Source: Terriglobia bacterium (lineage in GTDB: Bacteria > Acidobacteriota > Terriglobia > Bryobacterales > JACQDG01). From it: DNA of 64,000 nucleotides. Shown here one piece after another: positions 3,467 through 16,659 of this stretch; the stretch's first letter is position 1; every line of letters begins with the position of its first letter. A program made the position numbers and the translations under genes. The stretch lies in contig JBGPDC010000001.1 of NCBI GenBank assembly GCA_041482115.1, positions 24,296 through 88,295 on the forward strand. Reading direction: 5' to 3'. Under the pieces are notes generated by a model. It searched no databases. It saw only the letters and a program-made list of their open reading frames with translations, and was not told where the DNA came from.

Positions 3467-4024
3467 GTGAACCAGCACGTCGCTTTCCTGCGCGCCATCA
3501 ATGTGGGGGGACGGGCGGTCGTCAAAATGACCGACCTGCGGGAGACGTTTGCCGCCGCGGGGTGCCGGGACGTCAGAACCTATATCCAGAGCGGGAACGT
3601 CATCTTCGAGTCGCCCACGGAAAACACCGCCGCGTTGTTTCAAAAGGTCCGGGTCCAGCTCCGCAAACTGCTCGGTCAGGAACCCGGCGTTGTGTTCCGA
3701 AGTGTTCGCGAGTTCGAAGGCATGGTAAGGAGCGCCCCCTTCCAGAGTCTCGAAGCCGAACCGGGCATAAAGCTGTGCGTCGTCTTTTTGTCTCAAAAGC
3801 CGCGCAGCAGGCCGCGCTTCCCTTTGGTTTCTGCCCCAGAAGCTGTGGAGGCCGTAGGGATGAAGAACCTCGACGTGTTCGTCGTAAGCCGCCGCAAGAA
3901 GAATGGCTTCCATGGCTTCCCGAATGGTTTCATCGAGAAACAACTGGGCGTTCCGGCGACCACCAGAAACTGGTCGACCGTTCTAAAGATCGTTGAACTT
4001 GTCCGCCCGGAGCCCGGTCGCTGA
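3467..4024 (+). CDS. DUF1697 domain protein
   Basis: ORF 3047..4024 trimmed to GTG 3467. HVAFLRAINVGGRAVVKMTDLR...YIQSGNVIF is the DUF1697 signature. Confidence 0.75.
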   Translation: MNQHVAFLRAINVGGRAVVKMTDLRETFAAAGCRDVRTYIQSGNVIFESPTENTAALFQKVRVQLRKLLGQEPGVVFRSVREFEGMVRSAPFQSLEAEPGIKLCVVFLSQKPRSRPRFPLVSAPEAVEAVGMKNLDVFVVSRRKKNGFHGFPNGFIEKQLGVPATTRNWSTVLKIVELVRPEPGR

Positions 4025-13607: not shown

Positions 13608-13928
13608 TCACGCCCGCTTCGCTTCGCGCCGAATTCCCTCCACAATCCACATTCGCAATTGGGTCTGGTAGCCGACCGATTTCTTCGCCGCAATTCTCTT
13701 GGCGGCCTCGATCTGCTCGGGGGCCAGGCGGAGCGAGATGGGCGATTTGGCGCGAGCGTGACGCTCCCGAATCGACTTCGCGAGCGCTGCGGACGGCCGG
13801 GCAGGCTTGGCTGCGGGCAGTTGATTCCACACCTCGGCCACGGAGTGCGAATCGAAATACCGCGCGGCGTCCTCGTCAGACCGGAGCTTGGGGAGAGGCG
13901 CTTTCGCGGGGAGGAGTTTTTTTCTCAT
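13608..13928 (-). CDS. BrnA/CopG-like antitoxin (orphan)
   Basis: SDEDAARYFDSHS ... ISLRLAPEQIEAAKRIAAKKSVGYQTQLRMWIVEGIRRE matches the BrnA-family pattern. There is no intact BrnT/DUF497 gene upstream. Confidence 0.7.
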   Translation of the reverse strand: MRKKLLPAKAPLPKLRSDEDAARYFDSHSVAEVWNQLPAAKPARPSAALAKSIRERHARAKSPISLRLAPEQIEAAKRIAAKKSVGYQTQLRMWIVEGIRREAKRA

Positions 13929-14047
13929 AGAGCTACCTACTTGCGACGGAACAGCCGGCTCACCGAATCTGAGTCATCGCGGCTCGTGACATGAAGGCCG
14001 TCGGGCATTGAGTATTTGTCGAGCAGGAAATGTCAAGAGCCTAAATG

Positions 14048-15157
14048 TCACGCGCGGCGGAACTGTATGATCTCTGGTTCCTTTCCTTTGGGTACTGGGA
14101 CAGCAACGCCCGTAATGTCACGAAACGTGTCGGGCGTGAATTTGAGTTCCCGGCAAAGAGCGTCCAAGGTAACATCGGCTTTGGTTCCGAGCGCCTTCAG
14201 CGCTGTTAGAAGCAACTCGGGCTCCTGAAACGGAGGTTCGTGTGGTTCGCCTTTGGTCCAACCTTTCGCGGACATGTACTTGAATGCCTGCCGATAGGTG
14301 ACGGCATCAAGCAACCTCAGATCGTAGGCCCGCCTGATGATTGCAGCTGCACTGGTCTGCCAGCGCCGTTTTAAATCGAAGATATGTTCCCATGAGAAGG
14401 ACGAAAGGCTGAACTCTCGACCAAATGCCCTGCGAGGCATCAGGAAGGCGCTAGCGAACCGATCAGCGGCCATCTCGGTGTCGACGGTACCCGTGGGGAC
14501 ACCACGATGCACTACGAGATGACCGCATTCATGCGCGATGTCGAAGTTCCACCGGGACGTGCTCGGCGTCGCTTGATTCAGAAAAATGATCGTGGTTCGG
14601 CCGTACCTTGAAAAGGCATCTACCTTCGCGGACTGAATTGGCTGATGCACGATAATCACGCCAGCGTGCTCCAGCACCCTACCGATTTGCAGAATTGGCG
14701 CGTCCACTCCGACCCTCCAATGCTGGCGGCATTCCTCCGCCGCTGTTTCTATCTCTTCCGCGCTCGACGCTGGGATGTTCGGCACATTGATCTCGGGAAA
14801 CCTGAAAAGAGACTGCAGCCGTAGGAGCAGCATGCCGAGCAAGGTCGCATGAGCGCGAACCCGCGTCTTGAGCCGTTCTGGAGTGGTCCGCCGATGCCGA
14901 AAACTGCATTCATCTTCTCGGAAAACATCATCGAGCGAGCCATAGAAAAAGGCAGGCTCAAATCCGAGAACGACGCCACATGCTTCGACGAGGTCTCGGG
15001 CCGGGTCTCTCTTCTTACCTGCCTCGCAAAGCGAGATGAGGGCAGGCGAGGCTGCGACCTTCTCGCCAAGCTCCTTTTGCGTCAGGCCCCGGAACTCACG
15101 CGCGAGCTGCAGTCGTTCGCCCCAGAACACTTCGCTTGGAAACAACAAACCGCTCAT
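14048..15157 (-). CDS. XRE-family HTH fused to ImmA/IrrE (COG2856) zinc metallopeptidase
   Basis: N-terminal HTH (LAREFRGLTQKELGEKVAASPALISLCEAGKK). HEXXH motif IAHECGHLVVH followed by ADRFASAFLMP. 369 aa. GC is lower than the flanks. Confidence 0.85.
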   Translation of the reverse strand: MSGLLFPSEVFWGERLQLAREFRGLTQKELGEKVAASPALISLCEAGKKRDPARDLVEACGVVLGFEPAFFYGSLDDVFREDECSFRHRRTTPERLKTRVRAHATLLGMLLLRLQSLFRFPEINVPNIPASSAEEIETAAEECRQHWRVGVDAPILQIGRVLEHAGVIIVHQPIQSAKVDAFSRYGRTTIIFLNQATPSTSRWNFDIAHECGHLVVHRGVPTGTVDTEMAADRFASAFLMPRRAFGREFSLSSFSWEHIFDLKRRWQTSAAAIIRRAYDLRLLDAVTYRQAFKYMSAKGWTKGEPHEPPFQEPELLLTALKALGTKADVTLDALCRELKFTPDTFRDITGVAVPVPKGKEPEIIQFRRA

Positions 15158-15789
15158 CGGGTTTTTTCTGCTTCTCTGCGCTTCTCCTGCTTCTCCTGCT
15201 TGTTCCGTTCCGCAGTCTTCAAAGGTTCGAGTATCGGCGGCGGCAGGTCAATAGGCTTGGCTTGCATCGGGGTGACACGGTCCGGCTCAAGATCGAACGG
15301 AATGGCGTAGGTCTGCGTGATGTTTCCGGACTCATCCATCTCGACGAAGATGACGCTAGACACCAGGCGGGTGGCGGGATCGACTTCGACAGCAAGACGG
15401 AGCGTCGTATCTAATGGAGGGAGGCCCTCCATCTCAAACGACATCTGCCGGTGGTGTAACTCTCCATAGGTTGCGATGAGATACCGTTCAGGCGGGTCGT
15501 CTGATGCACCCTTGTAGAATCGGAAGGGTACCGATTCGATGGCGAAACTGAACCGCAAAACCTCAGCCTCGGGTAGGATTGTGAGCCAAGGGTGGTCCTT
15601 GGCGGCTTTGCGTATCGCGTGACATGTTCGGACGTAAACTCGGCAACCGAGGCTCCACTCGTTGTCTCCATTCGCCGTGTCGTGGAGCTGTACGGCGTCA
15701 CGTCTCACGTCGCGGATGATGCCCGCAACCGCCGAAAGGCGGTCTCGCGTGAGGTCCGGGTACCTAGCCCAAGGCTCGAAGTTATTCAT
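15154..15789 (-). CDS. hypothetical protein, no recognisable family; partner of the HTH-ImmA/IrrE gene
   Basis: 211-aa ORF. Its stop overlaps the downstream ATG (ATGA at 15154-15157). It has a mixed helical/beta core, a Pro-rich linker and a K/E/R tail (KTAERNKQEKQEKRREAEKTR). Confidence 0.6.
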   Translation of the reverse strand: MNNFEPWARYPDLTRDRLSAVAGIIRDVRRDAVQLHDTANGDNEWSLGCRVYVRTCHAIRKAAKDHPWLTILPEAEVLRFSFAIESVPFRFYKGASDDPPERYLIATYGELHHRQMSFEMEGLPPLDTTLRLAVEVDPATRLVSSVIFVEMDESGNITQTYAIPFDLEPDRVTPMQAKPIDLPPPILEPLKTAERNKQEKQEKRREAEKTR

Positions 15790-15830
15790 GCGTCATAGCA
15801 TACACGATTGCGGACATTGGTGCAATAAAA

Positions 15831-15893
15831 TTTACGGCCAGGAAATTATTTACAGTGATGTCAATAGTTTACAGCGTCGTAAAGACTTTACAG
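15831..15893. repeat. four direct TTTACRG repeats at 18-19 bp spacing (iteron/operator-like)
   Basis: TTTACGG at 15831, then TTTACAG at 15849, 15868 and 15887. Each is preceded by an A-rich stretch. The array lies between the stop of the small basic gene (15895) and the start of the 211-aa gene (15789). Confidence 0.8.
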
Positions 15894-15894
15894 C

Positions 15895-16143
15895 CTATTT
15901 CTTGCCCCACCGCGCCGCCGCCGCCTTTTTAGCGATCATCTTCCGCTTGCGGGCCGACAGTGATTCCGCCCGCGCCTTGCCCCCCTTGGACGCCCCCAGC
16001 TTACTCAGCGCCACGGCTGCCTGGTTCCGGGTGTCGGGCGGATCGGGCGGGCGCTCGACCTGCCCGGTCAACTCCTGGACCACCTGCCAGGCTAGCTGGT
16101 TCGTGTCCCTGGGGCGCTTCGGCCTGCTTGCTCGGGAAGGCAT
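15895..16143 (-). CDS. small basic protein (Lys/Arg/Ala-rich C-terminus, putative nucleic-acid binding)
   Basis: ORF 15895..16179 trimmed to M13. MPSRASRPKRPRDTNQLAWQVVQELTG...GASKGGKARAESLSARKRKMIAKKAAAARWGKK resembles widespread small hypothetical proteins of this pattern. Confidence 0.55.
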   Translation of the reverse strand: MPSRASRPKRPRDTNQLAWQVVQELTGQVERPPDPPDTRNQAAVALSKLGASKGGKARAESLSARKRKMIAKKAAAARWGKK

Positions 16144-16164
16144 GGTAAGATTGTGGCACATGTC

Positions 16165-16509
16165 ATGAACGTGAAGCATGCTTTGATTCTGGCACTCGTG
16201 CTGGGCTTGGGATCTGCGTGGAGCGCAGACAAGGCCGTAGAACTAGCCGTAGAGGAGACCACCACTCTCCGGGTCGGAGAACTGGCGGTACTGCAAATCC
16301 CCTCGGATCGCCGTTATTCGCATTTTCGGGGGAACGTAGCTGGAAACGCGCTTGCCTTCATTCGGCGTTCTGGACGCAAAGTGCTCTATCGTGCCGTTCA
16401 GCCTGGGCAAAGCACAATAGTCATCGGCCCCGAGGTTCCCAGGGGAGAATGCATTAGCTGCGCCACGCTCCATTATTTCATTACCGTAGTTCCACAGAGG
16501 TCAAACTAG
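16165..16509 (+). CDS. small secreted hypothetical protein
   Basis: Signal peptide MNVKHALILALVLGLGSAWSA. 114 aa from ATG 16165. No family recognised. Confidence 0.45.
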   Translation: MNVKHALILALVLGLGSAWSADKAVELAVEETTTLRVGELAVLQIPSDRRYSHFRGNVAGNALAFIRRSGRKVLYRAVQPGQSTIVIGPEVPRGECISCATLHYFITVVPQRSN

Positions 16510-16551
16510 ACCACTACCCCATCGTAGCGCCGTCCGGCGTGAGCCTGCCCG

Positions 16552-16560
16552 TGTTATACT
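16552..16560 (+). promoter_or_regulatory. extended -10 promoter candidate (TGTTATACT) for rpmI-rplT
   Basis: TATACT at 16555-16560 preceded by TGT. This leaves a leader of roughly 90-100 nt before the TTG start at 16660. Confidence 0.45.
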
Positions 16561-16659
16561 ATTAAGTCTTTCCGCTCGGCCGCGCAGTATCCCCAGACTA
16601 GAGCGAGCGAAACGGGTAACACCGGTTCGTGGTGTGCGCGGGGGCGAAGGAGGTATCCG

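Follow-up and report, generated by a model that had tools for sequence, protein, structure and literature searches.

A conserved polar repeat array at the rmrT promoter of a RosmerTA-like cassette, a probable set of operators for the antitoxin RmrA

What purpose is served by four short direct repeats, regularly spaced along the gap between two small genes of a Terriglobia genome? The window studied here (the whole 64,000-nucleotide stretch of DNA that was analysed) contains such a group in the 105-bp intergenic region that separates a small basic ORF from a gene for a 211-aa protein. Our preferred answer, to which we give a probability of about 0.6 on the strength of sequence comparison, is a polar array of operators for RmrA, filled cooperatively and repressing the rmrTA operon. 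The broader statement, that this is a genuine protein-binding regulatory array of one kind or another, can be made with high confidence.

On the plus strand the repeats read TTTACGG at 15831-15837 and TTTACAG at 15849-15855, 15868-15874 and 15887-15893, their starts being 18, 19 and 19 bp apart. Independent repeat finding recovered the same three TTTACAG copies at 19/19, and of 100,000 dinucleotide-preserving shuffles of the 105-bp region just 1 contained any 5-mer four times over in a chain spaced at 17-21 bp. Reading of the sequence, repeat finding and shuffling thus bear out the four evenly spaced TTTACRG repeats described in the original prediction, positions and spacing included. The region has a GC content of 0.40 vs. 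0.68-0.72 in its flanks, and base composition fails to account for the repeat pattern. When both strands of the 64-kb window are counted, TTTACRG occurs just ten times, four of them within the array, and a weight matrix (PWM) built from other loci found no second cluster of units anywhere in the window, other AT-rich segments included. The proviso that the motif might be equally dense in random AT-rich intergenic DNA is answered, as far as the 64-kb window goes, by these shuffles and by this search.

The array belongs to a cassette whose two main genes are co-oriented, the stop of rmrT overlapping the start of rmrA (ATGA). The 369-aa product of rmrA has an N-terminal XRE-type HTH followed by an M78 Zn-peptidase domain (Pfam Peptidase_M78, E=3.6e-13; HECGH in the translation); it resembles the spr1629 family repressor/antitoxin of NCBIfam, below the cutoff, and within PADLOC also matches capP and capH, more weakly. 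Searched at full length against PDB sequences, RmrA gave no match, and the HTH alone aligns weakly to 434-type domains. For the 211-aa protein the PADLOC match comes from one RmrT model and is limited to residues 3-105, its N-terminal half. Its AF2 model (mean pLDDT 77), for which Foldseek found nothing similar in the PDB at E<=0.001, shows two long N-terminal helices and then a beta-sheet domain, and Pfam and NCBIfam reveal no recognisable DNA-binding domain in it. Because of the PADLOC matches to both RmrT and RmrA, we consider the cassette a RosmerTA-like toxin-antitoxin/defence pair, as also suggested by the antitoxin with HTH and Zn-peptidase, by the adjacent co-oriented rmrT and by the retention of the pair in 107/112 loci.

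As for the surroundings, the stretch at ~13900-16600 that holds the cassette has a lower GC content (~0.53-0.60 vs. 0.68-0.72 in the flanks) and has a glycosyltransferase region on one side and rpmI-rplT-pheST on the other. It has the look of DNA acquired horizontally; neither an integrase nor a tRNA was found in the 64-kb window. Just downstream of rmrA there is a 106-aa CopG/BrnA-type antitoxin-like ORF (13608-13928, minus strand) with no obvious toxin ORF adjoining, and divergent from the small basic ORF there is a 118-aa ORF (16153-16509, plus strand) with a signal-peptide-like N-terminus and no family match.

Both genes that flank the array are on the minus strand, where the repeats read (C)YGTAAA, and it is in this direction that the region makes most sense as four 13-bp units followed by a promoter (Table 1). 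The array itself covers 15823-15893 and sits between the two genes, as had been stated, although part of the gap, the 33 bp at its promoter-proximal end (15790-15822), is taken up by the -35, the -10 and, between them, a conserved spacer element. Similarly, the A-rich stretch noted before each copy does exist and turns out to be the other half of the 13-bp unit. A fifth, inverted copy of GTAAA, overlooked in the original prediction, is found on the plus strand at 15879-15883, between two of the listed repeats, and through it the distal unit becomes a perfect palindrome (GTAAAGACTTTAC on the plus strand, 15879-15891), which scores 11.1 bits on the plus strand as well as the 15.9 bits of the minus strand when the window is left out of training. 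The 13-mer of unit 3 is identical to the equivalent unit of one relative (L116).

Table 1. Cassette genes, promoter elements and repeat units in the window. Dyad symmetry is given out of 6, centres are relative to the ATG of rmrT, and bits come from a PWM trained on other loci only.
Feature	Coordinates	Strand	Sequence	Dyad	Centre	Bits	Remarks
rmrA	14048..15157	-					369-aa antitoxin/regulator; PADLOC RmrA E=1.8e-69; 14 RmrA models matched
RmrA XRE-type HTH (aa 13-68)	14954-15121						Pfam HTH_31 E=2.9e-9
rmrT	15154..15789	-					211-aa putative toxin; first gene of the operon; PADLOC RmrT E=7.7e-12
Putative -10	15797..15802	-	TATGCT				17 bp past the -35; 7 nt before the ATG
Spacer element	15811..15819	-	CAATGTCCG				Conserved; family consensus; no unit by PWM
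Putative -35	15820..15825	-	TTGCAC				Proposed from sequence; TTGCAC also in the family consensus; under the consensus-scan threshold
Unit 1 (promoter-proximal)	15823..15835	-	GTAAATTTTATTG	2	near -40	16.5	Half-site
Unit 2	15841..15853	-	GTAAATAATTTCC	5	near -58	8.8	
Unit 3	15860..15872	-	GTAAACTATTGAC	4	near -77	9.6	
Unit 4 (distal)	15879..15891	-	GTAAAGTCTTTAC	6	near -96	15.9	Perfect 6-1-6 palindrome
Small basic ORF	15895-16179	-					94 aa; its end coincides with the array's distal edge

In minus-strand order the units and the promoter run into the rmrT ATG (15789) as GGCTGTAAAGTCTTTACGA / CGCTGTAAACTATTGACAT / CACTGTAAATAATTTCCT / GGCCGTAAATTTTATTGCAC CAATGTCCGCAATCGTG TATGCT ATGACGC ATG. 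The units span -34 to -102, and the final three bases of unit 1 are shared with the putative -35 hexamer. A standard sigma-70 consensus scan detected no promoter at the array, the hexamers of the window being weak matches, and we have placed the putative promoter by the layout conserved across the family rather than by that scan. The family consensus has the form ..GTaAAATTTcTTGCACCAATGTCcG.ttcgggGTATAat..7 nt..ATG, with TATAat as the -10, an A/T tract upstream of the -35 and no Shine-Dalgarno. Since the ATG follows the -10 by ~7 nt without a Shine-Dalgarno, the rmrT transcript is apparently leaderless.

How general is this arrangement? RmrT has 99 database homologues, and alignment-based scans provided 112 loci, mostly from Acidobacteriota MAGs and soil metagenomes, that were reduced to 91 by dereplication; scanning the genome collection with a single RmrT protein as query had given no match. 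The self-similarity of the 91 dereplicated upstream regions peaks at a shift of 19 bp (0.395 vs. a baseline of ~0.24). An iterated weight matrix converged on the unit ggCyGTwAAAtTTy, with 288 units distributed among 78 of the 91 loci (at least three units in 63 loci) and spacings that are almost all of 18 or 19 bp (61 and 125 cases, respectively). The search for the same motif and period in related genomes that the original prediction had proposed therefore gave a positive result. In 73 loci the distance from the start of the proximal unit to the ATG is 49-55 nt. Counted outward from the promoter over 73 loci, each of the first four ranks is occupied in 84-100%, a fifth in 52% and a sixth in ~1%, against a background of 0.3-0.7%. 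Even the dependence of the pitch on position is maintained, with a step from unit 2 to unit 1 of 18 bp in 62/65 loci, as in the window, and outer steps of 19 bp in 48/59, 56/60 and 36/37 loci (19 and 19 in the window). Within the unit, conservation is strongest at the G and the T that precede the tract (1.2 and 1.9 bits), and the flanks are C/G-rich.

The closest relatives, L001 (array at 3860-3997) and L116 (2238-2368), have five units vs. four in the window, and alignment to them leaves a clean gap of 19 bp, exactly one unit, between units 1 and 2 of the window (15837-15841). L116 is an IMG/VR viral contig of 43.9 kb that carries both the cassette and the five-unit array, a hint of phage carriage. 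Among cultured isolates, Tunturiibacter lichenicola (5.5-Mb genome record) has an RmrA that is 67% identical, and it might serve as a host for experiments. Much more distant RmrT homologues (35-40% identical), which come from Nitrospirota and other phyla, share the 19-bp pitch and have a different unit, GTTGACAA. These loci (L024, L025, L028, L029, and L031) have two or three repeats ~110 bp upstream of rmrT, a Shine-Dalgarno is present and the start is not leaderless, and the proximal repeat is itself a consensus -35. Judged by its sequence conservation, the array is a cis-element that keeps its place at the rmrT promoter in the majority of homologous cassettes, and the suggestion of an unusual operator array gains support from it, protein binding being predicted.

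Each 13-mer was scored for 6-1-6 dyad symmetry (out of 6), and over the family the mean increases steadily with distance from the promoter: 2.29 for rank 1 (proximal), 2.37 for rank 2, 3.08 for rank 3, 3.69 for rank 4 and 4.71 for rank 5 (distal). The controls gave 1.9-2.5, so that unit 1 is at control level, and at rank 5 74% of the units score at least 5/6. The array is polar: there is a true palindrome at the far end, and toward the promoter the promoter-distal half-site GTwAAA alone is kept. The symmetry of the distal unit fits HTH dimers. The proximal units have one half-site only, which is atypical for XRE dimers. The original argument, that XRE repressors usually bind palindromes and that the array is unlike an XRE operator, holds only in part; it does not extend to the distal unit, a 13-bp palindrome, nor to the covariation of the unit sequence with an XRE-type HTH described below. 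What appear to be direct repeats beside an XRE-type gene can, accordingly, be graded palindromic operators.

Which protein reads the units? RmrA, present in 107/112 loci, has the sole conserved DNA-binding domain that accompanies the array, and no conserved neighbour other than rmrT-rmrA was found, the largest ORF cluster reaching 7/64 loci. Its N-terminus aligns with the 434-type HTH in such a way that residues 38 and 43 correspond to Q28 and Q33 of 434 repressor. The structures of 434 repressor with its operator have these two glutamines in contact with bases. In RmrA, His38 goes with GTTAAA (T at unit position 7) in 113/156 units, Cys38 with GTAAAA (A at that position) in 53/60 and Pro38 with the same GTAAAA in 28/39, and Ser38 combined with Tyr/Asn43 goes with GTGAAA (G at position 7) in 8/11. 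The outgroup helix, SRQYxQRLE, goes with the unit GTTGACAA. On a tree of RmrT, helix class and unit class go together and His38 occurs on at least three separate branches, a covariation that is confounded by shared ancestry and comprises a handful of independent events. Residue 38 of RmrA would appear to set the specificity of the unit. We favour the RmrA HTH as the reader because the unit variants track its recognition helix and no other conserved family is at hand; the evidence points to it.

A different reader, which could be RmrT, a surface of the complex that depends on RmrT, or a host nucleoid or global regulator, is an unlikely alternative, and still the best placed of those we have considered. 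RmrT is present at every array locus because the loci were found through it, its fold matches nothing solved, and half-sites in direct orientation, as seen in the proximal units, would suit a reader other than an XRE dimer. RmrT and RmrA are always together in these loci, and co-occurrence cannot assign the array to either. RmrA was not found with other toxins among its best 120 homologues, all of the same subfamily and at least 63% identical, and a scan of viral contigs for other partners returned one locus, with the same rmrT-rmrA pair. Against RmrT stands its lack of a recognisable DNA-binding domain, and against any reader other than RmrA the fact that the unit variants follow the base-contacting positions of the RmrA HTH. 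A host factor cannot explain a unit that changes with the lineage of the cassette and with the phylum while the 19-bp pitch stays.

With RmrA as the reader, the array could work as follows. The N-terminal HTH, alone or in complex with RmrT, would read the GTwAAA half-site, and a first RmrA dimer would settle on the fully palindromic distal unit, which we propose as a high-affinity nucleation operator. Further RmrA would then be recruited cooperatively, at fixed pitch, onto ever less symmetric units toward the promoter, until the filling of unit 1 (centred near -40 and overlapping the -35) blocked the access of RNA polymerase. The outcome would be a threshold-type negative autoregulation of the leaderless rmrTA transcript, and the loss or cleavage of RmrA, e.g., by its own ImmA-like peptidase domain upon a phage cue, would derepress the operon. 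In this scheme we infer the identity of the binder, the cooperativity, the sign of regulation and the trigger.

The sign deserves separate discussion, as RmrA might instead be an activator which contacts RNA polymerase from unit 1, in the manner of a class II activator or of lambda cI at OR2, with the upstream units loading it cooperatively. This we hold to be improbable, to nearly the same degree as a different reader. It would be in keeping with the position of every unit upstream of or at the -35, none lying over the -10 or the start, with the centre of unit 1 near -40, a class II activator position, and with the imperfect -35 and -10 of the window (TTGCAC and TATGCT), which the consensus scan missed. 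However, in the family the -10 (TATAat) is near consensus and is combined with the A/T tract upstream of the -35, so the promoter probably works unaided, and in the outgroup the proximal unit is the -35 hexamer itself, which implies occlusion. Besides, type II toxin-antitoxin operons are almost always negatively autoregulated. Examples are HipB, an XRE-type antitoxin that represses through four operators (PMC3376134), and the autorepressed Xre-RES operon (PMC12204516). Repression is favoured over activation for these three reasons: the near-consensus family -10, the outgroup proximal unit and the general autorepression of such operons.

A more speculative idea, somewhat less probable again, is that the array is an assembly track, along which RmrA-RmrT would polymerise from the distal palindrome toward the promoter at the 18/19-bp pitch. 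As a filament on the DNA, bracketed in most relatives by the inverted pair CGGACAAT/ATTGTCCG, the defence system would be kept poised and sequestered. If this were true, a phage cue would activate the fused peptidase and the cutting of the HTH tether would release the toxin and derepress the operon together.

The brackets just mentioned involve the spacer element, CAATGTC(C/A)G, which together with its distal inverted copy falls outside the RmrA-operator model (CAATGTCcG in the promoter spacer). In most relatives, e.g., L088, L016, L063, L056, and L057, the inverted copy, C(G/T)GAmAwy, lies directly upstream of the distal unit and adjoins it; the paired elements of L088 are TCTGACAATGG ... CCATTGTCAGA. 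Its mean best match is 7.16/12 vs. 6.02±0.11 for shuffled sequences and 6.81±0.10 for between-locus pairings, and the paired variants TCTGACA / TGTCAGA change together between lineages. Neither the window nor L001 has a detectable distal copy, and the 3' end of the small ORF is found at that position. The element and its copy may serve in looping or provide a second site for binding. We also considered CAATGTCCG as a degenerate, in-register "unit 0" and rejected it, its median PWM score of -15.8 bits being that of background. An intragenic inverted partner of the element (15719-15731 / 15805-15817) was put down to chance (family signal 7.86 vs. 7.95 in permuted loci). An RNA element was discarded too, with no Rfam match at E up to 1 and a fold z of +0.69.

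The units, being A/T-rich, might act without any dedicated protein, as UP-element-like or curved DNA that boosts the promoter. Each one does include AAAwTTT, and in the proximal unit this tract lies right against the -35. This reading is nevertheless very improbable, given that the best-conserved positions are the G and T before the tract and that the flanks are C/G-rich. The array also extends to ~-100, past any UP element; planar A-tract bending would call for a pitch in phase with the helix, which 18-19 bp is not; the outgroup loci have units (GTTGACAA) that are no A-tracts; and the distal units are palindromes.

The small basic ORF, which stops where the array has its distal edge, carries KGGKARAESLSARKRKMIAKKAAAARW as a C-terminal motif and matches PHROG 2384 weakly. 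A copy that is 85% identical occupies the same position in L101 (574-807), where RmrT is only 46% identical, and the ORF seems to move independently of the cassette. The gene calls also differ here: that of NCBI has the same strand and a length of 82 aa, whereas that of JGI runs over the array on the opposite strand and is 126 aa long. That the array should be a remnant origin made of iterons, or an operator for this small protein or another of RHH/AbrB or Rep type, as originally suggested, can practically be dismissed: direct repeats with a period of 18-19 bp do fall inside the iteron range (~17-22 bp) and the ORF does end at the array, yet there is no rep gene and no conserved neighbour, the contigs are chromosomal and reach 2.7 Mb, the array keeps a fixed register with the rmrT promoter and a fixed distance to the ATG, the locus of the window lies beside rpmI-rplT-pheST, and the ORF accompanies the cassette in 4/112 loci and matches no DNA-binding family of Pfam or NCBIfam.

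The repressing array that we favour has several known counterparts. With the operators of lambdoid phages (434, lambda OR1-OR3) it shares a 434-type HTH and adjacent, graded, imperfect palindromes, as well as the cooperative filling proposed here. The phage operators consist of three sites at a 20-24-bp pitch between divergent promoters, all of them recognisable palindromes. In contrast, the rmrT array has four or five units and one promoter, and its symmetry is progressively lost. Palindromes are also the rule for HipB, whose sites (TATCC-N8-GGATA) span the -35 and the -10. The hipBA operon of E. coli (PMC3376134) is comparable in its XRE-type antitoxin, its toxin-antitoxin organization and its tandem sites, at least four across the promoter, with cooperative binding that is known for HipB and supposed for RmrA. 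Unlike in hipBA, only the distal unit is a good palindrome here, the pitch is a rigid 18/19 bp and the units stop at the -35; moreover, the toxin is encoded first and a Zn-peptidase is fused to the antitoxin.

Closer in the use of a repeated short motif is RcoLS20 of plasmid pLS20, an XRE-type protein that binds cooperatively to many copies of the 8-bp CAGTGAAA, mostly co-oriented and with a few inverted pairs (PMC4207663). Its sites overlap and flank the promoter, and an XRE-type HTH on a repeated short motif is what we propose here. RcoLS20, however, has its motifs irregularly spaced within a pair of operators that lie 75 bp from each other and act with DNA looping, and the genes under its control, expressed from divergent promoters, are those of conjugation and not a toxin-antitoxin cassette (PMC4207663). 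There is no sequence relationship. The pairs ImmR/ImmA of ICEBs1, DdrO/IrrE of Deinococcus and CapH/CapP have in common with RmrA the logic of an XRE-type repressor and an inactivating M78/COG2856 metalloprotease; according to the summary in PMC4207663, ImmR binds six regions near its promoters. In those systems repressor and protease are separate proteins and the operators are palindromic or otherwise arranged, whereas RmrA is a fusion paired with a toxin.

The most direct relative is RosmerTA itself, introduced by Millman et al. [quoted passage not shown] RosmerTA is a validated phage-defence/toxin-antitoxin family whose published control is limited to the suggested cleavage of the RmrA HTH, an idea put forward as the regulation of Rosmer-like toxin-antitoxins (Ernits et al., PMC10440598); a full-text literature search for "RosmerTA", with the Millman and Ernits papers included, found no operator or promoter architecture. 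The array provides a concrete, conserved cis-element for one large RmrTA subfamily, and with it a testable handle on the control of RosmerTA. Compared to the known operators, its distinguishing traits are the rigid 18/19-bp pitch, the graded loss of symmetry, the placement wholly upstream of the -10, the leaderless promoter and the HTH-peptidase fusion. For all that, the array belongs to a known kind of gene switch and not to a new kind of element.
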